DNA of 32,000 nt from Halogeometricum borinquense DSM 11551 (GTDB taxonomy: Archaea; Halobacteriota; Halobacteria; Halobacteriales; Haloferacaceae). Under the pieces are notes generated by a model. That model ran no database searches. It saw only the letters and a list, made by a program, of their open reading frames with translations, and had not been told where the DNA came from. The DNA is taken from NCBI RefSeq assembly GCF_000172995.2, contig NC_014736.1:60001-92000 (forward strand), read 5' to 3'. The translations under genes were made by a program, and so were the position numbers. Below, in pieces: positions 12,952-31,637 of this stretch (the first letter of the stretch is position 1; each line of letters opens with the position of its first letter).

Positions 12952-12953
12952 GC

Positions 12954-14722: not shown

Positions 14723-14749
14723 CTCACACCCAACGAAACCGATCAACCA

Positions 14750-15043
14750 ATGAAACCAGCAGCTAGACTCGGCGATTCAACGGCACACGGAAAGCCCCTG
14801 AGCGGTGGAATAGGTAGTCCAAACGTCCTGATTGGCGGGAAACCAGCGTGGCGTGCGGGAGCCGATATGCACGTCTGTCCGCTCGTCACCGGGACCGTCC
14901 CTCACGTCGGTGGTGTCGTTGCTAAAGGTAGCACCAGCGTGCTCATCAACGGCATGCCCGCCGTCAGAATGGGGGACAAAGTAATCGAGAGCGGCCCGCC
15001 GAACACCATCATCAGCGGCGACACAACCGTCCTCATTGGCTGA
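14750..15043 (+). CDS. PAAR-domain spike-tip protein
   Basis: 97 aa: MKPAARLGDSTAHG...VLIGGKPAWRAGADMHVCP...VLINGMPAVRMGDKVIE...TVLIG. It has the three PAAR-like repeats with the typical G-D/ING-P pattern. Confidence 0.9.
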   Translation: MKPAARLGDSTAHGKPLSGGIGSPNVLIGGKPAWRAGADMHVCPLVTGTVPHVGGVVAKGSTSVLINGMPAVRMGDKVIESGPPNTIISGDTTVLIG

Positions 15044-15049
15044 CCGGAC

Positions 15050-15448
15050 ATGTCTGAAGACTTTCTTGGCAAAGGCTGGGCCTACCCAGTGCGACCGGAT
15101 CACCGAGGTAACATCGAACTCTCAGAAACCGACGACGACATCAAAGAGTCCATCCGCATCATCCTCGGGACCGCCAAAGGCGAACGTGTCATGCGCCCCG
15201 ACTTCGGGTGCGACATCCACGACCACGTCTACTCGGCCGCCACCCCCGCCACGCTGAACGTCATCGAGACTAGCGTTCGGGAAGCGCTCGTGCGCTGGGA
15301 GCCGAGAATCGACATCGAAGACGTCGAAGCGTTCACCGACGAGGACGACCCCAACAAGATACTCATCAATATCGACTACCGGGTTCGTACCACGAACGCA
15401 CTCGCAAACATGGTCTATCCCTTCCACATCACGGAGGGTGATGGATGA
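15050..15448 (+). CDS. Baseplate wedge protein, GPW/gp25 family
   Basis: 132 aa: FLGKGWAYPV...IKESIRIILGTAKGERVMRPDFGCDIHDHVY...VREALVRWEPRI. This is the canonical gp25/gpW signature (GER.mrPdFG). Confidence 0.9.
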   Translation: MSEDFLGKGWAYPVRPDHRGNIELSETDDDIKESIRIILGTAKGERVMRPDFGCDIHDHVYSAATPATLNVIETSVREALVRWEPRIDIEDVEAFTDEDDPNKILINIDYRVRTTNALANMVYPFHITEGDG

Positions 15449-18400
15449 CCACTCCCCCGACGATTGACGACCGCGAAGAAGAGGACCTGTTCGATGAGTT
15501 GGTAGACCGAGCAGACGTATACACCGACGACTGGGACCCTCATACGTCAGATACCGGCCAGACAATCCTTCGAATTTTCTCTACCTTCGAGGCCGATGTC
15601 CGGAATCGCCTCAACAGCGTCCCACAGAAACACCGAATCGGCTTTCTCAACGCGTTCGGATTCGACCGTCGTCCCCCGAAGGCCGCCAGAGTTCCGCTCA
15701 CGTTCCACGTTCCGGGAGACCTCGACCGGAACGTCGTCATCCCCGGTGGCACGCAGGCAGTCGCCGGCGCAGGCGACACCTCACAACTCTTCGAGGTACC
15801 ACGCAACAAAGGGTTCGAGGCGACGGGCGCGTCACTGACAGATGTCATCGCTGTCGATCCCGCCGAAGACGCCATCGTAGACCACTCCTCGGTGCTTGAG
15901 TCAACGGAGTCGGTCGAACTCTTCGTCGGTGAGAATCTTCAGCAACACCACCTTTACGTTGCGAACGAGGACGCGTTGAACCTCCAGCCCGGCTCCATGC
16001 TCTCGATTACTGCGCAGGTCGATATCGAGACCGAGGCATTCGCGGACGCGGTCGTCTGGGAATACTACGGCGAAGACGAATCCGGAGACGAAGGGTGGCA
16101 TCCACTTGTACCGCCACAGAAACGAGCCAACACTGCCACGGCCGACAGCGGCATCGAAGCGGTCAAAGAGCAACTCCGGGAGCGCGATTCGTCCGACTAC
16201 GACACACTCGCCGGATCCCAATCCGTCTCGGGAAGCGTAGCAGCCGATCAATCAGTATACGAAGGGACCTTCCAGATTCCGGGGACAATCACCAAACGGT
16301 CGGTCAACGGGATCGAAAGCCGGTGGCTTCGCTGTCGTCTGACTGATAGAAACAGAGACGTTTTCTCCACGTCGGTTCGAGACTTGGCGGTTCACGTCGG
16401 AAGCACCGACGACGTGAACGGTCTCGAACCAGATCACCTACTGTCGAACGACGTGCCGCTCTCCACTGACGACGGCAACATCAAGCCACTCGGCCAACTG
16501 CCACAACCGCCCACCTCCTTTTACGTCGCCTGCGAAGAAGCGTTCACGAAGTCCGGAGGCACCATCACCCTCAAATTCCATCCGCCGGAAGAGGACAGTG
16601 ACACGTCAAGCGACGAGTCGGACAGTACCGACGGTTCTGACTCAGCGGGCAGCAGCGCTGGACGCGGTGCCGACATCGGAGTGATCGGCGGAGAGCCGCG
16701 ACTCTCCTGGGAGTACTGGAACGGTGACGGGTGGGCACAACTCGACTCCGTCAACGACGAGACGGATACGTTCCACAACGCGGGTACCGTCACGTTTCAG
16801 GTACCCGACGATATCGATCCGACAACCGTTTCCGGGCACGAGAACGTCTGGATTCGGGCCCGCCTCGTCAGCGGAAACTACGGACAGCCCTCGATTAACG
16901 TACCGGAGAACGACGTGTTCGACGGACTCAACAGCGATCCGGACCCGCCGGTGTTCGGTGATGTCTCGATTCAGTACGAGCACCGCGGCCAGCCCTTCGA
17001 TACGGTGTTCCGACACAACAACGCGTCGTACAGCGATGATCTCACGGAACGAATCGAGGCGTACGCTCCCTTTCAGGACCTTCCCGACGACGGACAGACA
17101 GTCTACCTCGGATTCGACGACAGCTTGCACGATGGACCACTCACGCTGTTCGTTCCCATCGACGACACGACGTATCCGCAGTCGTTCGACCCCGGAATGG
17201 AGTGGGAGTACTGTACGAGTCCGTCGGAGTTCTCCTGGACGGAACTCGACGTTCGAGACCGAACCGGTGGCTTCACCGAGCGCGGTATCGTCACGCTGAC
17301 CTTTCCCGAGGAAACCACTGCATTCGACTTGTTCGGTCGCACCCGGCACTGGATTCGGATTCGAACGACGCAAGACGAGTTCGAGCGCCCCGAAACAGCC
17401 CAGCAGTCCCAAGGACCGGCAACAGCCCGAACCGTCGCTGACCGGTCGAGTCGAACGACGACGCCGCCGCTTCTGGAGGGACTGCATCTCAACACGCGAT
17501 GGGCGTACAACAAGCGGACAATCGAAGACGAGATTCTCGGGTCATCAGATGGCTCTCACGACCAGTCGTTCCGGTGTGCGCACGCCCCGATGATCACGAT
17601 TGAGGTGTGGGTAGACGAGGTCTCGACGCTATCTGCGGGAGAGCGACGTACGTTACTCGAAGAACGACCCAACGATGTCGAACGGGTGTTCGATGATCGA
17701 GGAGACCTCGCTGAATTCTGGGTCCGGTGGACGAACGTCGAGGACTTCCTCGACTCGGGGCCGACGGACCGACACTACGTCGTTAACAAGACCCTCGGAA
17801 CGATCGAGTTCGGGAACGGGGACAACGGAGCGATTCCGCCGAGCGGACAGGACAACGTACGAGCGACGTACACCACCGGAGGCGGGAGCGATGGCAACGT
17901 CGATGCGGGGTCGGTATCGGATCTAAAGAGCTCGATTTCGCTCGTCGACGACGTGTCGAACCCCGAATCCGGCGATGGTGGCGCTGACGTTGAATCGATA
18001 GACGCGCTCGTGTCGCGGTCTGCAAACCGAATCAAGCACCGCGGGAAAGCCGTCACGCCATCGGATTACGAGCAAGTCGCACTGTCGGAATTCAGAGAGC
18101 TATCGACCGTAAAGTGCGAATCCACGTCGGACGGAGACGAGACGCGAGTAACCGTGATAATCGTCCCCGAAACAGAACGTGACAAACCGGTTCCGTCGAT
18201 GGCGTTGAAACACCAAGTCAGAGATGTCTTGACCGACTGTGCGCCGGCCACTGTCGTCGAATCCGACGACATGGATATCGTCGTTCGCGGACCGGGATAC
18301 GCGGAGATTTCCGTTCAGGCGACGATCCGCGCGCCGAATCTCAAGAGCGTGTCGTTGTTGAAACAGACGATACGCCGAGAACTCGACGAGTACCTCCACC

Positions 18401-18639
18401 CACTGACTGGCAAAGACGGGAAGGGCTGGTCGTTCGGTGAACTCCCCAGTTCCGACACACTCGTTCAGCGCCTCAACGACCTTGAAGAGGTCGCAGAGAC
18501 GGTCGAAGCGACGACGTACGTCGAAATAAACGGTGAGCGCCGTGCACTCACCGAACGGACAGCAGACGAGATTCTTCCGCAGAACACCCTCGTCTGCAGT
18601 GGCCAGCACGATCTCAGAATCACCATGGACATGGAGTGA
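15445..18639 (+). CDS. Large Baseplate_J-like baseplate assembly protein (gp6/gpJ/Afp11-like)
   Basis: ATGA overlap with the gp25 gene, 1064 aa. The N-terminal motif is IDDREEEDLFDELVDRADVYTDDWDPHTSDTGQTILRIFSTFEADVRNRLNSVPQKHRIGFLNAFG. The C-terminal gpJ-like region is GGSDGNVDAGSVSDLKSSISLVDDVSNPESGDGGADVESIDALVSRSANRIKHRGKAVTPSDYEQVA. It contains an acidic low-complexity insert, EEDSDTSSDESDSTDGSDSAGSSAG. Confidence 0.85.
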   Translation: MTTPPTIDDREEEDLFDELVDRADVYTDDWDPHTSDTGQTILRIFSTFEADVRNRLNSVPQKHRIGFLNAFGFDRRPPKAARVPLTFHVPGDLDRNVVIPGGTQAVAGAGDTSQLFEVPRNKGFEATGASLTDVIAVDPAEDAIVDHSSVLESTESVELFVGENLQQHHLYVANEDALNLQPGSMLSITAQVDIETEAFADAVVWEYYGEDESGDEGWHPLVPPQKRANTATADSGIEAVKEQLRERDSSDYDTLAGSQSVSGSVAADQSVYEGTFQIPGTITKRSVNGIESRWLRCRLTDRNRDVFSTSVRDLAVHVGSTDDVNGLEPDHLLSNDVPLSTDDGNIKPLGQLPQPPTSFYVACEEAFTKSGGTITLKFHPPEEDSDTSSDESDSTDGSDSAGSSAGRGADIGVIGGEPRLSWEYWNGDGWAQLDSVNDETDTFHNAGTVTFQVPDDIDPTTVSGHENVWIRARLVSGNYGQPSINVPENDVFDGLNSDPDPPVFGDVSIQYEHRGQPFDTVFRHNNASYSDDLTERIEAYAPFQDLPDDGQTVYLGFDDSLHDGPLTLFVPIDDTTYPQSFDPGMEWEYCTSPSEFSWTELDVRDRTGGFTERGIVTLTFPEETTAFDLFGRTRHWIRIRTTQDEFERPETAQQSQGPATARTVADRSSRTTTPPLLEGLHLNTRWAYNKRTIEDEILGSSDGSHDQSFRCAHAPMITIEVWVDEVSTLSAGERRTLLEERPNDVERVFDDRGDLAEFWVRWTNVEDFLDSGPTDRHYVVNKTLGTIEFGNGDNGAIPPSGQDNVRATYTTGGGSDGNVDAGSVSDLKSSISLVDDVSNPESGDGGADVESIDALVSRSANRIKHRGKAVTPSDYEQVALSEFRELSTVKCESTSDGDETRVTVIIVPETERDKPVPSMALKHQVRDVLTDCAPATVVESDDMDIVVRGPGYAEISVQATIRAPNLKSVSLLKQTIRRELDEYLHPLTGKDGKGWSFGELPSSDTLVQRLNDLEEVAETVEATTYVEINGERRALTERTADEILPQNTLVCSGQHDLRITMDME

Positions 18640-18643
18640 TACG

Positions 18644-20584
18644 ATGGGTATCGACATCCCAGAACTCGACGACCGGAGCTACGAAGAGTATCTTGAGCAG
18701 GCGAAAAAGCTGATTCCGGCCTACTCGGACGAGTGGACGGACTTCAATCCGCACGACCCGGGGATCACCATACTCGAGGTCCTCGCGTGGGTAACCGAGA
18801 CGCATACCTATCAGCTGGATCAGATTACGGACGACCACCGTGAGAAGTACCTCCAGTTGATGGGAGAGCATCGGCGGTTGCAAGAACCGGCATCGGCGCA
18901 ACTCTCGTTGTCTCCGCCGGATTCCGCAGTCGGGGAACGGCTTCCAGCAGGAACCAGATTCCTCGTCACTGATGGAACTAACGACACCTACCGGTTCGAA
19001 ACCGACCACGACATCGTGTTAACCGACGTCTCTCTCGAACGAGTCGTCACAGTCGGTGCGACCGGCCGAACCGACAACAGCCAAGAAAACGGGACCGACG
19101 GCATGTTCTATCGAGCGTTCGGGAACACCGTCGAACGCGGGGACACGCTGTACATCGGGTTCGACGGCGATCCGTTCGCAGCGGCAGAATCGCTCACGTT
19201 GGCCGTAGATTATCACGATGCCGATCTTCCGGAACCAACCGAAATCGGGTCCGACGACGTGTCGTTCGAGCCGTCAGTCGAACTGCAGTGGGAGTATCTA
19301 CCGCCGGACGGCGATAGCTGGATGCGACTCAACATCGCCGCCGACGGGACGAACGCACTGTACGAAAGCGGAGCCATCGAACTGACAGACCCCGAAGAGT
19401 GGCGGTTCCCCCGGGGAGACGGTGACCTCCTCGACATCGAATCCTCGGATCTCGTTTGGGTCCGGTGTCGCGTGGAGACGGCCGGATACGAGATTCCACC
19501 TCAGTTGGACCGAATCCAACCGAACGTCGTCTCGGCAAGTCATCGCGTAACCGTCACCAACGAGAGAGTAGAGCAGGTTGCGTCGCTCGGTGAGCCAACC
19601 GCACTCGACGGCCAAACGTACAAGACCGAGCACACGTCGATCCTTTCGGCTGACGTTCGAGTTAACGGAGAGCGGTTCGTCGAAGTACCCGACTTCGACG
19701 CGTCCGGGCCAACCGACCCACACTACTGTTTAGACCGAGATGCGGGACGGATCACGTTCGGCGACGGCGAACACGGAAGCGTTCCGCCCGCCGACGCGAC
19801 CGTGACGGCAGATTACGTTTACGGCGGCGGCGACGAGGGGAACGTCTCGCCCACCGCTGTCTGGCAGTTCGAGGATCCGTCCCAGTCGCTCACCGAGACC
19901 ACATCGCTGAGCGACATCGAGATCACAGCCACCAGTGCTGCCACGGGCGGCACGGATCGAGAGACGATCACGGAGGCACTCGAACGAGTCCGTCAGGATC
20001 TCCGCACACCCTATCGTGGCGTAACAGTCGATGACTACGAAGCGATTGCGTCACGGACGCCAGGTGTGAGAGTCGGCCAGACGAACGTTCTCGTCGATGG
20101 CGAACAGGTTACGGTCGTCGTCGTCCCGTACGCACCACCGGACATCTCGACACCGAAACCAAGCGACGGATTCCTCGATACTGTCCGTCAGCACGTTACC
20201 CAGCGAGCGATGCTCGGCGATCAAGTGACAATCAGCGGCCCGACGTACGTCGGACTCGACATCACTGTCTCCGGACAGGCCCGTCCGAGGTACACGGACA
20301 ACGGCTATGAAGCGGACATCCGAGCGGCTATCGAATCGTTCGTCCACCCCTTGATCGGATTCGACGGCGACGGCTGGCCGTTCGGTCGGAGTTTGAAGAC
20401 CGCAGAGATTGCCGAGCAGGTTACGGCGCTCGACGGCATCGATCACGTCTCGGATGTGGAGATAACGGCACACGGCGGGACGACGATCAACGGGACTGTT
20501 TCGATCAGTGACCAAGAACTGTTTTCAGTAGTGAACGTCTCAACGAATCTGGAAGTGCCGACAACAGACGACAGAGGTCGATAA
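18644..20584 (+). CDS. Second Baseplate_J-like baseplate assembly protein (paralogous N-terminal motif)
   Basis: The track ORF starts at 18533, inside the upstream gene. I prefer the in-frame ATG at 18644, 4 nt after the upstream stop (18637-18639): MGIDIPELDDRSYEEYLEQAKKLIPAYSDEWTDFNPHDPGITILEVLAWVTETHTYQLDQITDDHREKYLQLMG. This is the classic N-terminus of putative baseplate assembly proteins. The gpJ-like part is GGGDEGNVSPTAV...ATGGTDRETITEALERVRQDLRTPYRGVTVDDYEAIA. Confidence 0.82.
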   Translation: MGIDIPELDDRSYEEYLEQAKKLIPAYSDEWTDFNPHDPGITILEVLAWVTETHTYQLDQITDDHREKYLQLMGEHRRLQEPASAQLSLSPPDSAVGERLPAGTRFLVTDGTNDTYRFETDHDIVLTDVSLERVVTVGATGRTDNSQENGTDGMFYRAFGNTVERGDTLYIGFDGDPFAAAESLTLAVDYHDADLPEPTEIGSDDVSFEPSVELQWEYLPPDGDSWMRLNIAADGTNALYESGAIELTDPEEWRFPRGDGDLLDIESSDLVWVRCRVETAGYEIPPQLDRIQPNVVSASHRVTVTNERVEQVASLGEPTALDGQTYKTEHTSILSADVRVNGERFVEVPDFDASGPTDPHYCLDRDAGRITFGDGEHGSVPPADATVTADYVYGGGDEGNVSPTAVWQFEDPSQSLTETTSLSDIEITATSAATGGTDRETITEALERVRQDLRTPYRGVTVDDYEAIASRTPGVRVGQTNVLVDGEQVTVVVVPYAPPDISTPKPSDGFLDTVRQHVTQRAMLGDQVTISGPTYVGLDITVSGQARPRYTDNGYEADIRAAIESFVHPLIGFDGDGWPFGRSLKTAEIAEQVTALDGIDHVSDVEITAHGGTTINGTVSISDQELFSVVNVSTNLEVPTTDDRGR

Positions 20585-20586
20585 GC

Positions 20587-22794
20587 GTGGATTTCTCGTA
20601 CATAACGACGACGAGTGACGCAGATTGGGCGAACGGCGTACTGGACAACGTCGAAGTTCGAAACGGTGGTGTTCGTCTAGCGACGAAAACGGCAACTCGC
20701 CGGTACGAGGTGGCGACAGGCGTTCGTGACGTTGCCGCCGACCCCGACGGAGTCCTGTACACGATCCGAAACGAGGGTGGTGTGTTCCGGTACGATCCGA
20801 CCACCGAATCCCGGGAGCAACTTCTCAAGCGCACGGACAGAACCATCCAAGAACCGTGCGCGATCTGTGCGAGTTCGAACAGGGTGTTCGTCTGTGATGC
20901 CGACGACGGCACGATCACAGCGCTTTCACCACGACTCCATCGCGTCGTTGGAACGCTTCGTCCGAATCTCCGCGAACCGAGAGCCCTCGCGTACGGAGAC
21001 GGGACAATCTATGCGCTCACCGCAGACGGACTCGTCGCCATCGACCGAGACGGAACTGCCAGCACCGTATTCGACGACGAACTTACTGACCCGATAGACT
21101 TCGCAGTTCGAGAGAACGCGATATACGTGCTGGATAGCGATGCACGCGGACGCTCTCTTCGAGCGCTCGGTGATTCGGCTGAAACCGGACGTGACTCGCT
21201 CCCCGGGCAGGATACCGACTTTGGATTCGGTGACGAGGCATTCACTCCCGCATGTGTAACAACACTGGGAGAGAAGTTGGTCGTGGCAGGTCCGTTCGAC
21301 AACGCGGACGAGTACGGGATATTCGTGTACGACGCGGCGACCGCCGCGTTCGAGCAACGGGTCGAACTCGACGCACAGCCCCGGAAGATGGTTGCGCAGT
21401 CGGGAGATCCGGACAAACAGACGCTGCATGTAGTAACTGGTGACGAGAGAACCTGCCACGGGTTCCGAGCGCTCAACGAGTATGTGAACCATCCCCAGCA
21501 GAATCGGCACGTCGGGACAGCGATACTCCGCTACGACTCGGGCACGAAGGCAATCGACTGGCATCGGCTAACCCTCGGCATCATTCGGTCGTCAGCCAGC
21601 ACACAGGTCCGACTGCGGTACGTCGCAACCGACGAACCGCCGGTACTGGAACTCGATGCCGACGCCTTCGAAGAGATGTCACCGGACGCCGCGGAAACGC
21701 TGCGCGAGGCAGGTATACAGTCGATGTGGGAGTTCGTGACTGCCGATCCGGATTCGCTGGTGTCAGCCGATACGGAGTTCAGTCGCAACGAGATCAAATC
21801 GTGGCAAACGCAGGCAGGTTCGGAGTTAGCGTCGCACGCGGCATCGGAATGGACCACGAGTGACGTGATCGATCCCGAGGATATCCTCTTGGAGGATGCG
21901 AGCGGGCGATATCTGTACGTCGCCGTCGAACTGCTCGGGACACCGGAGGCATCACCGCTGGTCGATTCGGTTCGAGCGTACTGTCCACGCACGTCGTACC
22001 TCCGCTACATGCCGGAGATCTACCAGAACGACGAGCAGTCGGCGGCGTTCCTCGAACAGTATCTCTCCGTGATGGAGAGTTCGTTCGTCGATATCGAGTC
22101 TGAGATCGAATCTATCGGTGAACACTTCGATCCGTACGGCGTGTCGAGCGAATCACTGGCGTGGCTGGAGAGTTGGCTGGCCGCAGATATCGGACGGGAG
22201 TGGCCCGAGAGCGCTCGGCGCGAACTGCTTTCCCGCGCTCCCGAACTGTACAAAAAGCGGGGAACGAAAGCCGGATTGCTCGAACTGATTCGGCTGTACC
22301 TCCGGCATACGAATCCCAGATCGAATGCTCCGTCCCGTCGGCCCGCCCTCGAAGCGTCTCGGCTGCCTGACAGCGATACCGTGACGAACGGAGTCACGGC
22401 TACCGAATCCGAGCAAGACGGACAAGACGGCGGAGCATCGGACTACCGGCTGTTCTTCGTGGAGCGCACCGACCTCGATGCAGTCGATGATGACGTAGTG
22501 GACCGTCAGTATGGGTCGTTCCTTTCGGGGAGTCGGTCGTTCGCAGTGTTCTGCGGAGAACTGGATTCGGACGCGCAACTCGAAGGATTACAGGACATCG
22601 TTGACGCAGAGCGGCCAGCGCACGTCGATGGGACCGTGGTCGAATTCGAAGAGGAGTTCATCCTCGGGGAAAGTTCGTTCCTCGGACTCAACACCCACTT
22701 GACGTCGCGGGAGTTCACGATGGGCGAAGCCCGACTCGGCGAGGACACCGTCCTCTCGCCCAGAGGTGCTTCGGAGTCTCCGACCAACTCCTGA
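20587..22794 (+). CDS. Baseplate/tail protein: N-terminal beta-propeller-like repeats fused to a P2 gpI-like 'phage tail protein' domain (Afp12-like)
   Basis: GTG start 2 nt after the previous stop, 735 aa. It has 5-6 NHL-like repeats of ~45 aa (DPDGVLYTIRNEGGVFRYDP; EPCAICASSNRVFVCDADDGTITALSP; EPRALAYGDGTIYALTADGLVAIDRDG; DPIDFAVRENAIYVLDSDARGRSL; ...). The gpI-like signature is YLRYMPEIYQNDEQSAAFLEQYLSVMESSFVDIESEIESIGEHFDPYGVSSESLAWLESWLAADIGREWPESARRELLSRAPELYKKRGTKAGLLELIRLYL. Confidence 0.8.
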   Translation: MDFSYITTTSDADWANGVLDNVEVRNGGVRLATKTATRRYEVATGVRDVAADPDGVLYTIRNEGGVFRYDPTTESREQLLKRTDRTIQEPCAICASSNRVFVCDADDGTITALSPRLHRVVGTLRPNLREPRALAYGDGTIYALTADGLVAIDRDGTASTVFDDELTDPIDFAVRENAIYVLDSDARGRSLRALGDSAETGRDSLPGQDTDFGFGDEAFTPACVTTLGEKLVVAGPFDNADEYGIFVYDAATAAFEQRVELDAQPRKMVAQSGDPDKQTLHVVTGDERTCHGFRALNEYVNHPQQNRHVGTAILRYDSGTKAIDWHRLTLGIIRSSASTQVRLRYVATDEPPVLELDADAFEEMSPDAAETLREAGIQSMWEFVTADPDSLVSADTEFSRNEIKSWQTQAGSELASHAASEWTTSDVIDPEDILLEDASGRYLYVAVELLGTPEASPLVDSVRAYCPRTSYLRYMPEIYQNDEQSAAFLEQYLSVMESSFVDIESEIESIGEHFDPYGVSSESLAWLESWLAADIGREWPESARRELLSRAPELYKKRGTKAGLLELIRLYLRHTNPRSNAPSRRPALEASRLPDSDTVTNGVTATESEQDGQDGGASDYRLFFVERTDLDAVDDDVVDRQYGSFLSGSRSFAVFCGELDSDAQLEGLQDIVDAERPAHVDGTVVEFEEEFILGESSFLGLNTHLTSREFTMGEARLGEDTVLSPRGASESPTNS

Positions 22795-22887
22795 TCGGGC
22801 AACTGCTAAACGCGGGGCCACAACTTGGCAGAAATCCGCCGATCCGGTTCGACGGCCAGACGCCCGGATTGTCTGTTCACGTAACTG

Positions 22888-22893
22888 TTTTTT
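22888..22893 (+). terminator. Oligo-T tract, candidate archaeal terminator of the baseplate operon
   Basis: A T6 run (aactgTTTTTTctgc) lies 94 nt after the stop at 22794, in an otherwise GC-rich context. Archaeal RNAP terminates at oligo-T. There is no experimental support. Confidence 0.3.
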
Positions 22894-22916
22894 CTGCACG
22901 AAATTCAGTAGTAAAG

Positions 22917-22924
22917 AATTATAT
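22917..22924 (+). promoter_or_regulatory. TATA-box-like element upstream of the full-length DUF4157 effector gene
   Basis: aattatat is centred about 30 nt upstream of the ATG at 22951. This spacing fits a leaderless or near-leaderless haloarchaeal transcript and supports both an independent promoter for the effector array and the 22951 start. Confidence 0.35.
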
Positions 22925-22950
22925 GGAACGCCTGTCAATTCAGCGTAACG

Positions 22951-24378
22951 ATGGGATTTCGGACCGCACGAGAGAACACCACCGAGACCGAGCGGTCCTC
23001 GATATGGAGCCGCGACGAATCGGACTCGTCACGGCACCAACGCCACCGTCGGGGGCCTCGCTTCACGGCCCAAGAGTGCGAGGACTTGTTCGGGATCGAC
23101 ATGTACATGGACGGGCTGGAGGTCAAAGTCCAGCGTCTCGCCGATAGCCACGGCGCGGGCCAAGTCCGGCAGTGGGCCGACGAGGGAATGACCGTGGACA
23201 CGATGGGCAAACCGCGCGACATGCGCGCGTTCCGCGAGCGCCAGAAAGAACGGCCCGCGGAAGTACCCAAAGATATCGAGCGGCGGAACGCCAAATCTGT
23301 CCAGCGCAGTCGCGGCGCGCATCATGAGGCGTCGAAGGCTGGCGACGCGAACGTGCCCGATTCGGTTCGGGATATTATCTCCTCGCCCGGCCAGCAACTC
23401 GATGCAGGTATTCAGCAAGCGATGGAAGAGCGCATGGGTGACAACCTGGGCGACGTGCGCATCCACACAGGCCCACAGGCCGCGAAAGCCTGTGAAGACA
23501 TCAACGCCCGCGCGTTCACCGTCGGGAATCACATCGCGTTCAATCACGGCGAGTATGATCCGAGTTCGGCAGAAGGCCAGCACGTGCTTGCCCACGAGTT
23601 AGCGCACGTTCGCCAGCAGACCGGCGGCGCAGTGTCGATGCTTCCGCAGACGGGTGCGTTGGAAATCGACCCCGACGAGCGGCTGGAGCGTGAGGCTGAG
23701 GAGACCGCTCAACGCGTGATGCAAGGCGGGAAAATCGGCGTCCATCGGATGCACAACTCCGACGTGCATATTCAGCGAATGCCCGCCGACATGGTCCCAG
23801 AGGCACTGGAGATGTTCAAAGCCGAGAACCAAGGCGGTGCCGTCGGATCGTTCCAACAGCGTCAGAATCAAGAACGCATCGAGTTCATCGAAGAGCAAGT
23901 CGAGCAGAAGCTCAAGAATCTGGATACTCTCCAGAACTCGCTGACCGACCAGGACGAACAAATACTCGATGCTCGGGCTGAGGGAGAGGAAGAACTCGTC
24001 GCTGATCTCCAAGCAGCGAAGACGGCAATCCAAGAGCGCATCAGCGAACTGTACGCCACCATCGAGGACAAAGCCGACCAGATCGCGTTGACCGACGAAC
24101 AACGCGAAAAGTTGTACGGTGACACCGACTTCGACGGTGGCGAGTTCGCCATGGAGTTCGGCTGGACACTGTTCAAAGCGGGCATGTCTCTCGTTCCTGG
24201 CTTTGGCATCGCTATCGCTGGGCTCGAAATCAGCGAAACGCTGTTCCGAGAGACGATGAAACAAACCGACGGGTCACTCGCTGAACGACTCACCCAGACT
24301 ATGGACATCCTCGTCAAGAGCGGCAAGACTGGAACGGGAGACTCGCAGGGTGTCGGTAGCAGTAGGAGGGATGCATAA
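22951..24378 (+). CDS. Full-length DUF4157-domain (HExxH, zincin-like) CIS effector candidate with coiled-coil and C-terminal hydrophobic module
   Basis: 475 aa. The DUF4157 core spans about nt 23353-23620: [97 protein letters not shown] is encoded at 23593-23607. After DVHIQRM (23761-23781) come a heptad-rich acidic region and a Gly-rich hydrophobic segment, [25 protein letters not shown] (24157-24231). The exact start is uncertain (alternative ATG at about 23101). Confidence 0.85.
23491..23781 (+). repeat. Homology stub, copy 1 (3' half of the DUF4157 domain plus linker up to the HIQRM junction)
   Basis: The 291 nt recur at 25292-25582, with about 23 mismatches by hand alignment, mostly at third codon positions. 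Nt 23644-23722 are identical to 27398-27476. Confidence 0.85.
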
Positions 24379-25277
24379 TGGATGGACTAATTACTGGAGA
24401 AAATGACGAGCGGGTTGGACTCAGCGTTATCGACAATAACGACGTTGAGCACGTCATTGAGATGGAGTTCGATGGCGAAATCAAATATCACGAGCAAGAC
24501 GGGTATCCGGATGAGCCACTGAAGCGAACGAACGAAGGGGCAGAACACGTCAACCAGGCTCGCCGGTACGCCAAGTGGCATGTCTACCGTGAGCGAGGAT
24601 ACGAGACGGTCCCGCCGACGGAAAACCCCGACAGCCTTCTGGCAGCGTGTATCGCTGTTGCTCGACTGTCTGAGACCGCGTTCGAAGACGCGTTCGGGGA
24701 TATCGAAGCCCAGATACGGAGTCACTACGACGATTCGACGGTCGAGTTGCCGTTTGCCGATGCCGATGGAAGTGATATACTCGTCTACAAGAAAGATATC
24801 GCGGTCCGTCCGGACCCGATGACGTTTGATCCACCGGTACTCGAACAGTTCCTCGGGCAATTCAGCGGTGACTCAGACTCCCCAGTGGTTCCAGCGAAAG
24901 CTGATCTTGACCGCGAGGTGTTCGACGACCTTGATTTCGAACTCAAAAGCGTCTCGGGGATGCACTACCTCCACAACGACGGGTACGACAACGAGCGAAC
25001 CGTCCAGAGCAGCCAGCGACTCGGCACAGACCCAGATGCGACTGTTGAGATGATTCCGGTTGACCCAGCTGAGTTCGGTAATTTCCAGCACTACGTTACT
25101 TCAAATCTGATTTACCAAGCTCGAGATGTGCTCCTTCGCATGGGAGTCAAACCACCGATCGCGTTCCGGGCTCAAGGACAAGGAAAGTACCGAGCAACAC
25201 TCGAACAACAAGCCTGCCCACAGTACGAGAATTACTGGGACGCGACAGCAGATATCCAGTCGTGGGAACCGAAGTAG
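24378..25277 (+). CDS. Effector-partner protein 1 (uncharacterised acidic family; immunity or chaperone candidate)
   Basis: TAATG overlap with the effector stop, and GGAGG lies just upstream. 299 aa, with no TM segment. Family motifs are ITGENDERVGLSVIDNNDVEHVIEMEFDGEIKYHEQDGYPD...EHVNQARRYAKWHVYRERGYETVPP and a C-terminal FQHYVTSNLIYQARDVLLRMGVKPPIAFRAQGQG. Confidence 0.8.
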   Translation: MDGLITGENDERVGLSVIDNNDVEHVIEMEFDGEIKYHEQDGYPDEPLKRTNEGAEHVNQARRYAKWHVYRERGYETVPPTENPDSLLAACIAVARLSETAFEDAFGDIEAQIRSHYDDSTVELPFADADGSDILVYKKDIAVRPDPMTFDPPVLEQFLGQFSGDSDSPVVPAKADLDREVFDDLDFELKSVSGMHYLHNDGYDNERTVQSSQRLGTDPDATVEMIPVDPAEFGNFQHYVTSNLIYQARDVLLRMGVKPPIAFRAQGQGKYRATLEQQACPQYENYWDATADIQSWEPK

Positions 25278-26338
25278 TCCACAGGCAGGACTGCGAGGAC
25301 ATCAACGCCCGCGCGTTCACCGTCGGGAATCATATCGCCTTCAATCACGGCGAGTATGATCCCACGTCACCGGAAGGCCAGCACGTCCTCGCTCACGAAC
25401 TCGCGCACGTTCGCCAGCAGACGGGCGGCGCAGTGTCGATGCTCCCGCAGACGGGCGAGTTGGAAATCGACCCCGACGAGCGGCTGGAGCGTGAGGCTGA
25501 GGAGACCGATAAACGCGTGATGCAAGGCGGGAAAATCGGCGTCCATCGGATGCACAACTCCGACGTGCATATTCAGCGGATGGGGGCTGGCGAGTACATC
25601 GATGGGGCGTCCATCGGCGGGATGATTGAAGCGATTGCGAGCGAATCGGAGTTAGAACCAGACGAAGTCGCCGCAATCGTCGAGAATTACAAGGTCAGTG
25701 GGACGGTTCACAGTGGAGCCAAAGGCCACGACGCACTGAACCTCAAGGCGCTGAAAGAGGCCCAGAACCTGTTGGAAGAGGCAGACATCGCTTCGGATAT
25801 CAACCAAGAGTTACTGGCGGAATTAGAAGACTCGGACCTGCGTGCTGACCTCGCAATCTCCGAGATGAAAGCTGACCGAGGTCGTGAAAACGGCAAGGGA
25901 CTCGAACACTTCGACAGCCCTGAAGAGGCCTTCGAGACGGTCAAAGAGTTCCAAAACGACCAAGAGAAACTCGAACAGCGGCTTTCAGAGTTGGACAACC
26001 GGCTGAAACAGACGATTGGCCGGTCGAATATCCGGCTCTCCGAAAAGCAGAAAGAGACGCTGGAAAATCTCGCCGACCAGGTCGACAGCCCGTATTCGGG
26101 GCAGGCAGTCAGCATTCTGCTGAACTACATGTCGGTCGCGTCTACTGAGAAGACACTGTCGGGAATCCTTGCGACTGCAACGTCAACCGGTCCAATGGGT
26201 GGTGTCATCCTAGCTATGGGCGTGGTTTCGACCATCACCACTATACTGCCGCAAGTCGTCTCCATGCTTGAGAGCGGTCTGACTACCCGCTCGGACGATG
26301 ATACCACTGAGACGGACGATTCACGGGGTCTGACATAA
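25262..26338 (+). CDS. Orphan effector cassette 2: 5'-truncated DUF4157 stub plus divergent coiled-coil/hydrophobic C-terminal module
   Basis: The open frame is headed only by a GTG that overlaps the last 16 nt of partner gene 1. Homology to the full-length gene begins at 25292 ([17 protein letters not shown]...[65 protein letters not shown]). The N-terminal ~180 aa of the full-length protein are missing. The C-terminal hydrophobic stretch is GILATATSTGPMGGVILAMGVVSTITTILPQVVSML (26162-26269), followed by a 22-aa acidic tail. It may be a silent cassette rather than an expressed gene. Confidence 0.65.
   Translation: MGTEVVHRQDCEDINARAFTVGNHIAFNHGEYDPTSPEGQHVLAHELAHVRQQTGGAVSMLPQTGELEIDPDERLEREAEETDKRVMQGGKIGVHRMHNSDVHIQRMGAGEYIDGASIGGMIEAIASESELEPDEVAAIVENYKVSGTVHSGAKGHDALNLKALKEAQNLLEEADIASDINQELLAELEDSDLRADLAISEMKADRGRENGKGLEHFDSPEEAFETVKEFQNDQEKLEQRLSELDNRLKQTIGRSNIRLSEKQKETLENLADQVDSPYSGQAVSILLNYMSVASTEKTLSGILATATSTGPMGGVILAMGVVSTITTILPQVVSMLESGLTTRSDDDTTETDDSRGLT
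25292..25582 (+). repeat. Homology stub, copy 2
   Basis: See copy 1. It begins 15 nt after the TAG stop (25275-25277) of partner gene 1 and ends at the HIQRM codons (25568-25582). Confidence 0.85.
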
Positions 26339-26339
26339 G

Positions 26340-27317
26340 ATGAAGGCAAAGATAACCGGCGAAGATGATGTTCGTGTGGGACTCCATGTTACTGACAATA
26401 ATGGAGTAAAGCACAAGATCGAGATGGAGTTTAATGGTGAAATTAAATACCATAATCAAGACGGCTATCCAGACAAGCCGAAGAATCGAACACCCAATGG
26501 AAATGCACACGTAAACCAGACCTGTCGATACGCCCGCTACCACGTCTATCAAGAGACCGAGTACACCCCACTCCCACCCGAGGAAAACCTCCCAGGAATC
26601 AAGAAGGTCAAGCAGGCAATTGCGGACCTCTCAGTCAAGGAGTTTGAGGCGTACTTCAGCGATACCTACGACCAAGTGCTATCAAACCATCCAAGTGTCA
26701 CTCCACCTGTTCCACATCCAGAATCAGTCCCGCAGAATGGATACATCCTCTACCTGATTGACGTGTACCTCGACGACAACGACGAAATCGAGGCTGTCTC
26801 GGACATCCACCTCCAGTATCTGGACGAAAATGGTGACAAAACCCAGGACTGGAACGACGACCCATTCCCCGACCGGCAGCCCGACGCCCGCCTCCAGCTC
26901 TTCGGAAAGTATGTTCCATCGATGGATGTGTTTCAAGAGTTCGTCGTCTACCATCTCCGGTGTCAACTTCGGGATGTCTACATCGGGGCAGGTCTGGAAC
27001 CACCTGAAAAGTACCGGGTTCTTGGACGTGGCGATGACGACCTCACGAGTCGTTACCACAACGATAAAGTAACTATCTACGACGACTACCACCTCGAAGA
27101 AGCCGACATCCCCGGATACGAACTTGAGTTCGACTACGGATTTGGGGAACTCGGTAAACAAAGCGTCATCAACGCCAAGCGAAAGGGAATCGGCGCTGAG
27201 AATCCAGACGACGCTGATAGTAGGTTAGCCAATCCATCACAGGATGGAGAAGAGGGACTGCTCGAAACGGTATCATCGGTACTCCGAGGGAGCGACACTG
27301 ACCAGACCGAGACGTAA
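26340..27317 (+). CDS. Effector-partner protein 2 (same family)
   Basis: The ATG lies 1 nt after the cassette 2 stop. 325 aa: ITGEDDVRVGLHVTDNNGVKHKIEMEFNGEIKYHNQDGYPD...AHVNQTCRYARYHVYQETEYTPLPP ... FQEFVVYHLRCQLRDVYIGAGLEPPEKYRVLGRG. Confidence 0.8.
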   Translation: MKAKITGEDDVRVGLHVTDNNGVKHKIEMEFNGEIKYHNQDGYPDKPKNRTPNGNAHVNQTCRYARYHVYQETEYTPLPPEENLPGIKKVKQAIADLSVKEFEAYFSDTYDQVLSNHPSVTPPVPHPESVPQNGYILYLIDVYLDDNDEIEAVSDIHLQYLDENGDKTQDWNDDPFPDRQPDARLQLFGKYVPSMDVFQEFVVYHLRCQLRDVYIGAGLEPPEKYRVLGRGDDDLTSRYHNDKVTIYDDYHLEEADIPGYELEFDYGFGELGKQSVINAKRKGIGAENPDDADSRLANPSQDGEEGLLETVSSVLRGSDTDQTET

Positions 27318-27355
27318 TCTCGGGGAACCCTTCTAAACAACAAATTTGTGGGCCC

Positions 27356-27535
27356 GTGCACGTGCGTCAACAGACTGGTGGTGCGGTAAGTATGCTCCCG
27401 CAGACGGGTGCGTTGGAAATCGACCCCGACGAGCGGCTGGAGCGTGAGGCTGAGGAGACCGCTCAACGCGTGATGCGTGGTGGGGAGCTGGGCGTGAAAC
27501 CGCTCAGTCAGACTGAGTACCACATTCAGCGGATT
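27356..27535 (+). repeat. Homology stub, copy 3 (partial)
   Basis: Nt 27398-27476 (79 nt) are identical by eye to 23644-23722 of copy 1. The flanks are diverged. It ends at the HIQRI codons (27521-27535). Confidence 0.8.
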
Positions 27536-28252
27536 CCAGAGGGAACAGCGGAATTCTACGAGGGCGTCATCGACGCGATCAAGCGCGAGTCAGCTCTCAC
27601 GGACGACGATGTCGAGCGGATTAAGGACGAAGTGGCGCAGGACGTGGCTGGAACAGACTACGCTGGGGCGAAAGGCCACGACGAATTGAACGTGAAGGTA
27701 CTCGAAAAAGCCCAGCAGAAAGCCCAACAAAAAGCCGAGGAACTCGGCGCTGTCGATAAGGTGAACAAAACGCTTGCAGAGTCCGATCTGGTGCGTGGAA
27801 ACAATGAATCTGGGAACATCGATAGCCTCACCGACGGGGAGAAATCGGCGATGGATGTCGTTCACGAACAGGCACAGGTCGAAAAGACGCTCGACGAACT
27901 GGACGCCGAACTGAGTTCCCTACTCTCCGACGAGAACATCCGACTGACAGCGACTCAGGAATCCGAAATCAAGTCTCTCCAGCAGAAGCTGGCCGAACAA
28001 TTCGACTCCCCCGTCGCCGAACTGGTCATCACGTGGCTGCTGGACAACCTTACAGGGGCAGCGACGAGCGTAACGAGCCTCTCGGCGCTGTTCGCAAAAG
28101 AGATGGGCGCGGCAGATGCATCGACCGCTGCCGGTGCGATCGTCATGGCTGTCTCGATGGGCCTGGCGCTGTTCGTCAAAACCATAACCACTGACTACGA
28201 TGTTGGTGATGATACTGGCGCAGAAAACGATCCGACTGGGGTGAGAGAATGA
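27356..28252 (+). CDS. Orphan effector cassette 3: more deeply 5'-truncated stub (starts at HVRQQTGG) plus divergent C-terminal module
   Basis: The GTG-headed frame starts 38 nt after the partner 2 stop: [59 protein letters not shown]. The first His and the Glu of HExxH are missing. The C-terminal module is related to cassette 2 (AGAKGHDELNVKVLEKAQ vs SGAKGHDALNLKALKEAQ; FDSPVAELVITWLLDNL vs VDSPYSGQAVSILLNYM). Its hydrophobic segment is AAGAIVMAVSMGLALFVKTI (28127-28186), followed by a 21-aa acidic tail. Confidence 0.65.
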   Translation: MHVRQQTGGAVSMLPQTGALEIDPDERLEREAEETAQRVMRGGELGVKPLSQTEYHIQRIPEGTAEFYEGVIDAIKRESALTDDDVERIKDEVAQDVAGTDYAGAKGHDELNVKVLEKAQQKAQQKAEELGAVDKVNKTLAESDLVRGNNESGNIDSLTDGEKSAMDVVHEQAQVEKTLDELDAELSSLLSDENIRLTATQESEIKSLQQKLAEQFDSPVAELVITWLLDNLTGAATSVTSLSALFAKEMGAADASTAAGAIVMAVSMGLALFVKTITTDYDVGDDTGAENDPTGVRE

Positions 28253-29115
28253 TGGACGGAGATATCATCGGTGAAAACGAAGACGGTATCGGTGTCGATG
28301 TTTCGGATAACAACGAGATCATACACGAGATCTCGATTGAAAAGGGTAGTTGGGAGATCGTATACCACGAGCAAGACGGCTACCCTGACAAGGCAGCCAA
28401 ACGCACGCCAGATGGTAACGAGCACGTCAACCAGGCGAGAAGATTCGCTCGGTATCACGTGTACAAAGAACGCGGCTACGAGACGTTCCCATGGGACGAA
28501 CACATCGGATACATCGAAACTGTCGGTGATGCCATCAAGAGCCTCTCAACCGAGGAGTTCGAGGACTACTTCGGCGAGTTCTACGAGACGGTTGCTGGCT
28601 CGCTCAGCCTCAACAGTGGGGGAGACATCACAGCTCTCTTCGCGGCGATCCAAGAGAAGGCCAACGCGTACTACATCGACGTGTACCTCGACAACGATGG
28701 ACAGGTAGAGGCAACCTCAGAGGTGCGGCAGATAATTCCTACCGACGACTGGCAAGAGGAACTCGAATCACCGCCGGAAGACACCGACCGCGTTCCTGAC
28801 GCACGCATCGAATTGATGCCGATGCCGCTGCCATCGATCGAGTTGTTCCAGCCTATTGTTGTCCACCAGACGAGATGCCAGATTCGAGACTGCTACATCG
28901 TCATGGGCGAGGAACCACCCGAAGAGTATCGCCTACTGGGCTTTGGGAAGTACAAATTCGCCTCGCTCTATCAGCGAGGCGACCTCTCGCTGTACGAGGA
29001 CTACACCCGTCTCGACGCCGACATTCCTGGCTACACGGTCGGCCTCGGCCTCGAAGAGTACCCAGAAATCGAAGGACAGGTCAAATCGCTGTTGTCGGCG
29101 TTCGCCGACGAATAA
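28249..29115 (+). CDS. Effector-partner protein 3 (same family)
   Basis: ATGA overlap with the cassette 3 stop. 288 aa: IIGENEDGIGVDVSDNNEIIHEISIEKGSWEIVYHEQDGYPD...EHVNQARRFARYHVYKERGYETFP ... FQPIVVHQTRCQIRDCYIVMGEEPPEEYRLLGFG. Confidence 0.8.
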   Translation: MMDGDIIGENEDGIGVDVSDNNEIIHEISIEKGSWEIVYHEQDGYPDKAAKRTPDGNEHVNQARRFARYHVYKERGYETFPWDEHIGYIETVGDAIKSLSTEEFEDYFGEFYETVAGSLSLNSGGDITALFAAIQEKANAYYIDVYLDNDGQVEATSEVRQIIPTDDWQEELESPPEDTDRVPDARIELMPMPLPSIELFQPIVVHQTRCQIRDCYIVMGEEPPEEYRLLGFGKYKFASLYQRGDLSLYEDYTRLDADIPGYTVGLGLEEYPEIEGQVKSLLSAFADE

Positions 29116-29169
29116 CCTCCCGTGGCTTCTTGTTTGGCGTGTGGTTCTGGCTGCGATGTGTCCAGCACT

Positions 29170-29289
29170 GTCGAGTACGACCCGAACTCCGCGGAGGCCA
29201 GCACGTCCTCGCTCACGAGCTCGCGCACGTTCGCCAGCAGACCGGCGGCGCAGTGTCGATGCTCCCGCAGACGGGCGAACTCGAAATCG
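29170..29289 (+). pseudogene. Fourth DUF4157 stub remnant, frameshifted and lacking any C-terminal module
   Basis: The sequence gtcgagtacgacccgaactccgcggag-gccagcacgtcctcgctcacgagctcgcgcacgttcgccagcagaccggcggcgcagtgtcgatgctcccgcagacgggcgaactcgaaatcg aligns to [38 protein letters not shown] of copies 1 and 2. One base is missing in the gaa-ggc codons (around 29196-29198), so EYDPNSAE and [11 protein letters not shown] fall in different frames. Homology stops at about 29289, and AT-rich sequence follows. Confidence 0.7.
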
Positions 29290-29535
29290 CCCACCGAAAT
29301 CGGTTCCATACTATCCACCAGATATTATCATGGACTACTATTTTGTCGATCAGAACGGATCAATCCTGATGCAGAGTATATCAGTAACGAAATTCAAGAA
29401 AAGAGACAGATCCGAATTGTTGATCCAAACACGTGAAATCGGAAGAGACGCGTAACCAGCACGCTCAGTAGTTCTCATCCCGACTGTAACCACAGATCAC
29501 CGCTGTGGGAGGTTAGTCCGCACGAGATCGAGAGA

Positions 29536-30638: not shown

Positions 30639-31637
30639 TTATAGATCCGGCCGTGGTGCGAGTCCGGTCCAGTCGATAATCGCGTGCTCGCTGTGGTAGT
30701 TCTGGAGTTGGTCGGCGCGTTCGTAGCGGCCAGTGAACGAAGTGATGCCGTGGCCCGTCACTTGCGCGTCGCTCGGTGGTCGAACCCCCATGCCGACGTA
30801 GCAATCTCGGAGTTGGCAGCGGAAGTGATCGACCAGGGTTCGCTGGAACGCTGCCACGGAGATAATCGGCGTATGGTCTGGTGTAAGTTGGATGCGGGCA
30901 GCGAGCGTGGCATCCTCGTCCGGTTCCGTCCCGTCACCGTATTCGATGCGTGTCGGTCCGTCTGTATTCCAGTGGACACGGAGCGGAGAGATAACGCGGA
31001 GGAACTGCTCGCTGGACGCATCTTCAGTAAAGGTGGACTCAGATGTCGAGAGCACGCGGTTCAGACGGGAGAACAGGTCCGAATCTTTCCGGTCAGGACG
31101 GACATCAAGTGCCTGTCGGATTTCTCCGAGGCTGTTCAGTTCGGCGAGGACTTCGGCGAGTCGCCGGATCTCCTCGGTATCCAAGGTGAGGTGAATGTCC
31201 TGTTCGATGAGTTCCCAATCTGCGTCTGGCGCTACCTGTGGAGGTTCCACTGGCGGGGTATCGTTCGTCCGGAGAGCGGCGAGTTGGTCGTAACAGGTCG
31301 TGAGATGCGATTCGAGTGTGTCCTGAGCCATCGCGCCGATCAACAGTGTCGTGACGGCGAGTCGGTCGGGATCAGCGATCTGATCGGATTGACTGTACGG
31401 TGAGAGGGCGTTAGATCCGGTTGTGCGGGTGAGATAGTACTTCGCAAAACGTTCGACGCGAGCCAAGCGCTCTTTGACCCCTAGTGATCGGTCATCGCTG
31501 TCGGGAAAATGTTGGTCACACCAGTGGTCTGTGACCTCCCCTTCCTTAGAGAGGGTGAGGTGGTGTTGTACATCATCATGGTCGGTGATTCGAAGCTCGA
31601 CTGTACGGTCCGTTTCGGAGTGTTCGGTGACGTTCAT
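30639..31637 (-). CDS. Effector-partner family paralog 4 (divergent, stand-alone, opposite strand)
   Basis: 332 aa. It shares the family skeleton: VELRITDHDDVQHHLTLSKEGEVTDHWCDQHFPD...ERLARVERFAKYYL at the N-terminus and FQRTLVDHFRCQLRDCYVGMGVRPPSDAQVTGHG near the C-terminus. Compare FQxxhVxHxRCQhRDxYhxxGxxPPxxYRxxGxG in partners 2 and 3. The overlapping + strand ORF 30684..31403 is a shadow. Confidence 0.8.
   Translation of the reverse strand: MNVTEHSETDRTVELRITDHDDVQHHLTLSKEGEVTDHWCDQHFPDSDDRSLGVKERLARVERFAKYYLTRTTGSNALSPYSQSDQIADPDRLAVTTLLIGAMAQDTLESHLTTCYDQLAALRTNDTPPVEPPQVAPDADWELIEQDIHLTLDTEEIRRLAEVLAELNSLGEIRQALDVRPDRKDSDLFSRLNRVLSTSESTFTEDASSEQFLRVISPLRVHWNTDGPTRIEYGDGTEPDEDATLAARIQLTPDHTPIISVAAFQRTLVDHFRCQLRDCYVGMGVRPPSDAQVTGHGITSFTGRYERADQLQNYHSEHAIIDWTGLAPRPDL

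Follow-up and report, generated by a model that had tools for sequence, protein, structure and literature searches.

Why should the toxin genes beside an archaeal contractile injection system (CIS) be laid out as one complete effector gene followed by copies that have lost their 5′ ends? This arrangement is found in a stretch of 32,000 nucleotides (hereafter the window, to which all coordinates refer) that covers positions 60,001 to 92,000 of contig NC_014736.1 from the haloarchaeon Halogeometricum borinquense DSM 11551. Nine open reading frames (ORFs) of the region match exactly the consecutive proteins ADQ69186-ADQ69194 of plasmid pHBOR03, a replicon of 210,350 bp; as ADQ69204 is Hbor_38900, the accession numbering makes the first of the nine (ORF1) Hbor_38720 and carries the series to Hbor_38800 (30639-31637). 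The interval 22951-31637, 8,687 bp in length, is the published 8.7-kb, nine-gene "interspacing region" (Hbor_38720-38800) of a CIS cluster (Hbor_38640-38890) resembling a type VI secretion system (T6SS), which has been characterized on this plasmid (PMC11566945). We read the locus, with a probability of roughly 0.8, as a polymorphic-toxin locus of the T6SS-like CIS, made up of one expression site and of orphan cassettes displaced from it. An initial annotation, drawn from the letters of the DNA, had proposed a repertoire of effectors whose toxic tips are swapped by recombination between orphan cassettes; the architecture and the exchange of tips stand, the latter as shown on evolutionary time.

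The complete effector and its truncated copies

Hbor_38720 (22951..24378, + strand; 475 residues; exact match to ADQ69186.1) is the sole full-length DUF4157 gene of the interspacing region. The profile PF13699 (DUF4157, now eCIS_core) is matched over positions 1-78 of 79 (E=1.7e-31, 108.6 bits), above the Pfam gathering score and with the HExxHxxQ signature present as HELAHVRQQ, which confirms the complete domain first noticed by eye. The gene consists of an N-terminal region (22951-23394), the DUF4157/eCIS_core domain with HELAH (23395-23628), a linker that runs to the motif HIQRM (23629-23781) and a tip, CT1 (23782-24375). An AlphaFold (AF2) model shows a disordered segment at residues 1-34, a helical region at 40-129, an alpha/beta region with HELAH at 137-224, a low-confidence linker at 225-275 and a helical tip; at a pLDDT of 64 it serves for domain boundaries only and is too uncertain for a fold search. 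Among hundreds of haloarchaeal relatives of ORF1, residues 1-277 are 76-91% identical and the sequences diverge beyond them, and the C-termini of some relatives are toxin domains (GH-E nuclease PF14410, deaminase PF14424 and colicin D PF11429), so that the homologues join a conserved N-terminal region to variable C-terminal toxin domains in the manner of polymorphic toxins. The alignment of ORF1 with Hbor_38900, a paralogue that is both secreted and toxic, covers residues 1-284 at 80% identity and ends at the same HxQR junction.

The second half of the DUF4157 domain and the linker of Hbor_38720 (stub 1, 23490..23781) recur three times further downstream on the + strand, as found by repeat search and alignment. 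Stub 2 (25291-25582) is a 292-nt direct repeat of stub 1 at 92% identity; stub 3 (27358-27535) is 86% identical over 138 nt (27358-27495) and can be followed at the protein level to HIQRI at 27535; stub 4 (29172..29297), which lies inside the annotated 79-residue Hbor_38780 (29130-29369), is a frameshifted remnant devoid of a tip, in which the repeat finder gave 94% identity to copy 2 over 29195-29292. Repeat identity at such length is far beyond chance. Stubs 1 and 2 share perfect tracts of 67, 50 and 35 nt, stubs 1 and 3 one of 79 nt, and stubs 2 and 3 one of 50 nt. The repeats thus came out as highly significant when the region was aligned with itself, and the hand count of about 23 mostly synonymous mismatches in 291 nt was accurate: stubs 1 and 2 differ at exactly 23 of 291 codon-aligned nucleotides, 17 of them at third codon positions, and the differing codons comprise 15 synonymous and 5 non-synonymous ones. 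The shorter third copy and the frameshifted fourth were likewise found where they had been described. In an alignment of the four sites with their flanks, the similarity of the copies starts abruptly, about 13, 40 and 55 nt past the stop codon of the preceding partner gene (15-54 nt by the first estimate), and in copies 1-3 it ends at the HIQR[MI] codons. In copy 4, EYDPNSAE is encoded in one frame and [31 protein letters not shown] in a different one, and homology stops past LEI; the copy is collinear with the stub belonging to the next orphan of Haloferax larsenii NCIM 5678, within a block of 90% identity (27355-29297) that is discussed below.

Each of the first three copies carries its own tip and is tightly coupled to a partner gene on the same strand. 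The start of partner 1 (Hbor_38730, 24378..25277, 299 residues) overlaps the stop of ORF1, and orphan cassette 2 (Hbor_38740, 25262..26338, 358 residues as annotated; tip CT3, 25583-26335) begins at a GTG inside partner 1. It is followed by partner 2 (Hbor_38750, 26340..27317, 325 residues), by orphan cassette 3 (Hbor_38760, 27356..28252; 286 residues from the annotated ATG at 27392 or 298 residues from the GTG at 27356; tip CT5, 27554-28249) and by partner 3 (Hbor_38770, 28249..29115, 287/288 residues). In the second copy the DUF4157 domain is entered at Cys181 and PF13699 is matched over profile positions 30-78 of 79 only, so that, by the AF2 domain boundaries of ORF1, Hbor_38740 is without roughly half of the fold. 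The third copy (ORF5) enters at HVRQQ and so begins with the second His of HExxH, having lost the H-E, and a search of ORF 27356-28252 with PF13699 gave no match. Coverage of the domain profile is therefore full in the first gene, partial in the second and nil in the third, as the initial annotation had anticipated; its statement that the copies have no ATG at the homologous position was mistaken, an in-frame ATG lying at 27392 in stub 3 and the same conserved Met codon being present in stub 2. The strong divergence that it reported for the C-terminal regions is seen past HIQR[MI], with the qualification that CT3 and CT5 are distant homologues (about 32% amino-acid identity) and not unrelated. 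Downstream copies thus have no N-terminal trafficking region and yet keep the homologous tract, as orphan modules do.

The three partner genes all belong to DUF7958 (PF25858, from precomputed Pfam family assignments), and every toxin stop in the array either overlaps the following partner start or is separated from it by 1 nt, which places an immunity gene directly beside each toxin gene, as in polymorphic toxin systems. Hbor_38740 and Hbor_38760 are toxic in Haloferax volcanii and are neutralized, the first by Hbor_38750 and the second by Hbor_38770, so that partners 2 and 3 are immunity proteins by experiment (PMC11566945). Partners P1-P3 are paralogous at 35-42% amino-acid identity. Neither the tips nor the partner proteins gave a match in the local Pfam copy, NCBIfam or PDB sequences; homologues of the partners are all haloarchaeal, and DUF7958 appears to be restricted to haloarchaea. 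CT1, CT3 and CT5 each end in a hydrophobic segment rich in Gly, Ala and Ser, which hints that the tips may be membrane-active. An AlphaFold model of Hbor_38750 (pLDDT 86, pTM 0.83) consists of an N-terminal beta-sheet, a helical bundle and a second beta-sheet, and found no PDB fold match at E≤0.001.

Truncated genes in tandem might also be plain paralogues, products of gene duplication, whose 5′ ends have been mis-annotated or lost through sequencing or assembly error, with no cassette logic behind them, and short-read assemblies do break or carry N-gaps at the stub (our loci L059, L053 and L055). The sequence of the window is, however, identical in two independent assemblies of DSM 11551 (pHBOR03 and AOHT01000003.1, of GCA_000337855.1), the same layout is present in gap-free complete replicons (L002, L057 and L058), and the 13-55 nt between the stop of a partner gene and the start of homology leave no room for a lost N-terminus. 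The identical assemblies and the complete genomes refute this explanation in practice.

Exchange of tips among haloarchaeal loci

A pattern scan taking one genome per species gave 51 loci; complete replicons and three more strains of H. borinquense came from exact-protein and BLAST look-ups, and the modules of the window (N-terminus, DUF4157, linker, three tips and four partners) were mapped onto all of them. The fetched loci hold 96 non-redundant stubs. Of these, 55 count as full length, with 150 or more in-frame codons before the linker; 36 are truncated, and the remaining 5 are interrupted by the end of a contig. Haloferax, Halogeometricum, Natrinema, Haloarchaeobius, Halohasta and Halovenus are among the genera involved. 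Among the 36 truncated copies, 31 keep a tip ORF of 150 codons or more, the other five being short fragments. These 31 cassettes follow an upstream DUF7958 gene within 300 nt in 25 cases and are followed by their own DUF7958 gene within 60 nt in 24 (42 of 55 for the full-length copies); upstream of the linker, 17 lack an in-frame ATG and 8 lack any start codon. The truncation points scatter between residues 4 and 53 of DUF4157 and between residues 1 and 12 of the linker. The architecture seen in the window, in short, recurs across the Halobacteria, and modules of tip plus immunity gene have been exchanged with breakpoints at or in the stub.

The clearest cases place the orphan tips of the window on complete genes elsewhere. 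Plasmid pHFX2 of Haloferax sp. S1W runs collinearly with the window, at about 80% identity, as far as 23781 (the end of stub 1) and then continues with window 25291-27470 at 85%; it therefore resembles the window minus the DNA between stub 1 and stub 2. Its full-length gene of 528 residues bears CT3 (92% amino-acid identity) and is followed by an orthologue of P2 (83%). A recombinant of stubs 1 and 2 made in silico from the window is also 528 residues long and is 89% identical to the natural S1W protein, ungapped. On plasmid pHl5678-1 of H. larsenii NCIM 5678, a full-length gene of 516 residues stands directly after the Tail_P2_I orthologue, has a tip 97% identical to CT5 and is followed by an orthologue of P3 (88%); the in-silico recombinant of stubs 1 and 3 has 515 residues and matches this protein at 90.5%, ungapped, over 506 residues. 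The H. larsenii block is 90.3% identical in nucleotides to window 27355-29297 and the flanking CIS genes only about 80-82%, and a cassette more similar than its backbone points to exchange between genera. The tip carried by the full-length N-terminus does, then, differ among syntenic loci, which the initial annotation had put forward as a check.

Displacement can also be followed within the species. Against H. borinquense GCA_040679015.1, identity is 97% over 12957-23777, which reaches to the end of stub 1; beyond that it breaks down, to return at 29409. Against H. borinquense CP048739.1, identity ends at 23625, the end of the DUF4157 domain. The flanks of these two strains are 99.3% identical to one another, and the tip of the resident 538-residue gene of CP048739.1 is 99.7% identical to a truncated orphan in GCA_040679015.1, where the displaced copy has an abrupt start within the tip (…LNIKVIQEAEQ…) and is preceded by 3.9 kb of new modules. 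Here a tip has been displaced into an orphan between conspecific strains, the same module of tip and immunity gene being an orphan in one strain and the end of a full-length gene in another. As judged from such comparisons of sequence, tip exchange is demonstrated on evolutionary time only.

Two further loci call for comment. In L059 (RZHH01000012.1), which looked near-isogenic (99.4% identity in the flanks), CT3 appears to occupy the expression site; the case was rejected, as a scaffold gap of 10 N lies in the stub (at about 6040 of the reverse complement). Draft assemblies break at the array; the Logan contigs L053 and L055 end at its edges, those of the DSM 11551 run likewise giving no information on population variants, and with such breaks and N-gaps at the stub short-read genomes can show false "recombinant" junctions. 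In L052, positions 14433-14540 encode a fragment of 21 residues that is 90% identical to the start of CT3 and is joined to an internally cut CT5-like tip, a mosaic which indicates that joins occur inside tips too.

The same comparisons bear on whether the array is a mere record of past replacements, in which orphan toxins decay, are never re-used and leave only the immunity genes under selection. Leftover strings of immunity genes are known from polymorphic toxin loci (PMC3482391), and some of the material here has that character: copy 4 has a frameshift and no tip, an orphan of L052 is interrupted within its tip, and both the five short fragments and the scatter of truncation points fit decay. 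Set against this, most truncated copies (the 31 counted above) keep a long tip ORF, both orphans of the window are still toxic (PMC11566945), perfect tracts of 50-79 nt are kept, stub 2 is nearest to stub 1 (92%, compared with 77-87% to the stubs of other genomes) and the predicted recombinants match natural proteins ungapped. We consider it unlikely that the array is such a record and nothing else.

Expression and possible re-use of the cassettes

A run of six T at 22888 and a TATA-like TTATAT at 22919, the latter 32 nt before the ATG of ORF1, lie in the intergenic interval 22888..22924 (+ strand), which may hold both a terminator of the baseplate operon and the only promoter-like element before the array. 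The scan was one of simple TATA and T-run motif matching, a sigma-70 scanner being unsuitable for archaea. The only TTWWWW hexamers that the + strand has within 22700-29500 are two intergenic ones (22888 and 22919) and two inside the coding sequence of P2 (26430 and 26443), so that no TATA-like element was found before the orphans; T-runs of at least five on the + strand of 20000-32000 occur only at 22888, with none in the array. A single promoter-like site outside coding sequence and an array free of T-runs suggest one promoter with read-through of the whole array.

On the reading of the locus as one expression site with orphan cassettes, Hbor_38720 would be the expression site, with its own promoter-like element, N-terminal region, DUF4157 domain, linker and toxic tip, and an orphan would be a 5′-truncated stub (part of DUF4157 and the linker to HIQR[MI]) with a toxic tip and a tightly coupled DUF7958 immunity gene. 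New modules would enter by a homologous crossover in the conserved 5′ part together with an illegitimate join downstream, so that the resident tip would be displaced downstream and become an orphan; at a later time, a crossover between two stubs would delete the intervening DNA and set an orphan tip in frame behind the N-terminal 277 residues. Residues 1-277 presumably mediate spike attachment or loading. The same N-terminal 277 residues are present in Hbor_38900, the only other secreted DUF4157 protein compared, and in Streptomyces DUF4157 proteins bind spike components (PMC13277306). Orphan immunity genes would be transcribed by read-through and would protect against neighbours that deploy the matching tips.

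Several observations weigh against this account. The orphans keep intact ORFs, start codons (GTG 25262 and ATG 27392) and stop/start overlaps with their immunity genes, and as the toxin stops overlap or abut the immunity starts, the truncated toxins may be translated in the native host. The stubs show the pattern of purifying selection evident from the excess of synonymous over non-synonymous codons given above. The promoter and terminator calls are simple motif matches only. Exchange is seen among genomes, on evolutionary time, and the sole near-isogenic strain that apparently has CT3 at the expression site, L059, is unusable. Copy 4 and the cut L052 orphan are debris, which makes part of the array a graveyard and not a usable reserve. 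In a test for local homogenization, 11 of 19 truncated stubs were most similar to a stub of their own locus, a weak signal.

The first two of these observations would equally be expected if the truncated genes were independent effectors, expressed natively and loaded in trans, for example with Hbor_38720 as an adaptor and the linker stub as a docking handle. Published data lend this idea further substance: Hbor_38740 and Hbor_38760 are toxic in the form in which they are annotated, and Hbor_38720, which the wild-type secretome contains in greater abundance than that of a sheath mutant, is secreted CIS-dependently and yet is not toxic to H. volcanii (PMC11566945); DUF4157 proteins of Streptomyces can tie DUF4157-less effectors to the particle (PMC13277306); and adjacency to a DUF4157 gene is a recognized feature of DUF4157-less toxins of extracellular contractile injection systems (eCIS; PMC11297309). 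Neither Hbor_38740 nor Hbor_38760, however, is among the proteins reported as CIS-dependently secreted or enriched in the wild-type secretome, an absence that the authors of that study ascribe to growth conditions (PMC11566945). The folded DUF4157 domain is cut at a residue that varies from genome to genome, and no start is conserved, which speaks for accident rather than design; and in other genomes CT3 and CT5 are covalently joined to the full N-terminus. Loading in trans is accordingly judged improbable, more so than a purely historical array, and displaced cassettes remain the preferred interpretation.

The interpretation as displaced cassettes can be extended to a working switch, in which, as H. 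borinquense populations grow, RadA-mediated crossovers between the perfect stub tracts of 50-79 nt would continually yield subclones that load CT3 or CT5 instead of CT1. Such subclones would delete 1.8 or 3.75 kb, and the whole population would stay immune to all three tips. This extension is possible but doubtful; were it true, it would amount to weapon switching in an archaeon akin to a contingency locus, like Rhs orphan activation or pilE/pilS variation.

The injection system, its neighbours and known toxin loci

The array was initially placed downstream of the CIS; it sits between two CIS subclusters. Cryo-tomography has shown the H. borinquense CIS to be attached to the cytoplasmic membrane, and the system kills H. 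volcanii in a contact-dependent manner (PMC11566945); since it is membrane-anchored and acts by contact as a T6SS does, it ought not to be classed as an eCIS. The baseplate/spike subcluster upstream of the array (12283..22794, + strand; from Pfam matches and gene calls in the identical contig L055) encodes tube-LysM, gpD/VgrG, base_V, PAAR (about 14750-15043), gp25, two Baseplate_J proteins and a Tail_P2_I protein of 735 residues. Directly 5′ of the tube-LysM gene is an ORF of 2203 residues (5671-12282, + strand) with no Pfam match at E≤0.01. No homologue of a tape-measure, plug or crown protein was found in the published CIS cluster (PMC11566945). At the left end of the window, a CBS-domain protein (1400-2134, + strand) has a sub-threshold match to Swt1-like HEPN (E=0.0045) and is unrelated to the array.

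Two genes on the right side of the interspacing region differ from the cassettes. A fourth DUF7958 paralogue, Hbor_38800 (30639..31637, - strand; 332 residues), stands at the edge of the sheath subcluster with no adjacent toxin and shares 22-26% amino-acid identity with P1-P3. In every CIS locus of Haloferax and Halogeometricum that was examined, it holds this position beside the sheath subcluster, and it is far more conserved than the cassette partners (73-76% amino-acid identity across genera, 97-99% within species); it may belong to the core of the CIS or be an immunity gene that became fixed long ago. An ArsA/Get3-type ATPase, Hbor_38790 (29536-30501, - strand), lies inside the array region in all four H. 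borinquense strains and is missing at the corresponding spot in the Haloferax loci L001, L002 and L057. ATPases of the Get3 type handle tail-anchored proteins, and a functional link between Hbor_38790 and the tail-anchor-like hydrophobic ends of the tips would be pure speculation.

The general kind of locus is already known. Orphan modules of Rhs, CdiA and MafB have been reviewed (PMC4436062), and activation of a Salmonella Rhs orphan is among the work cited there (Koskiniemi, 2014). As in those systems, a full-length gene and its cognate immunity gene are followed on the same strand by 5′-truncated modules of tip plus immunity gene, a tract with homology to the conserved region just 5′ of the variable tip is retained in the modules, sets of tips vary among strains of one species, and a crossover in the tract would give an in-frame chimera. 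The differences are that H. borinquense is an archaeon that delivers by a phage-tail-like, membrane-anchored CIS; that the conserved module is an N-terminal region with a DUF4157 metallopeptidase-like domain in place of Rhs/YD or FHA repeats; that the stub is half a domain and a disordered linker to HIQR[MI], rather than VENN or PxxxxDPxGL; and that the immunity proteins all come from one haloarchaeal family, DUF7958, with at least two of the tips being distant homologues. In the H. borinquense array, activation of an orphan in vivo is a prediction.

Much of the ground had also been prepared for DUF4157 itself, and the novelty first claimed for the locus was overstated. Toxins of this type in the species were described in 2012, and 2024 saw the publication of the toxin-immunity pairs encoded here. 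Zhang et al. (2012) regarded PVC-metallopeptidase (DUF4157) proteins as polymorphic-toxin-like, named H. borinquense and proposed recombination; many such systems had no adjacent immunity genes in that study, and archaeal toxin/immunity cassettes were given only for Methanosarcina Rhs (PMC3482391). DUF4157 was later established as a marker of eCIS toxins (Geller et al., 2021, PMC8213781; a machine-learning study of 2024, PMC11297309), and in both studies DUF4157-less toxins often adjoin DUF4157 genes. The array shares with these PVC/eCIS toxins an N-terminal DUF4157 domain with HExxHxxQ, highly variable C-terminal toxin domains and multiple copies per genome; unlike in those reports, every tip has an immunity partner and truncated, stub-bearing cassettes are common. 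The study of 2024 in Science Advances (PMC11566945) dealt with the same DNA and treated three of its genes as separate toxins; truncation, shared stubs and exchange between strains are not mentioned in it, and a text search of the article found no "truncated" and "orphan" only as an author name. The literature search found no paper that links DUF4157 with orphan modules, and a prior description in Makarova et al. (2019, mBio) is possible. As far as checked, the reading of an archaeal CIS locus as an array of orphans is new.

That reading changes how the only experimentally studied archaeal injection system is to be understood: two of its four validated toxins would be beheaded spare cassettes, and their truncation would offer a structural reason for the absence of Hbor_38740 and Hbor_38760 from the secretome. 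It predicts that the loading determinant lies within residues 1-277, and under it any resistance to nearby Haloferax strains that carry the same tips in full-length form at the syntenic site is likely to stem from the orphan immunity genes. Besides chaperoning in trans, it would provide a second explanation for DUF4157-less CIS toxins that adjoin DUF4157 genes. The setting of the array is genetically tractable, and these expectations are directly testable. It shows, too, that the orphan-cassette dynamics known so far mainly from bacterial Rhs, CdiA and MafB extend to the Halobacteria, where they also cross genera.

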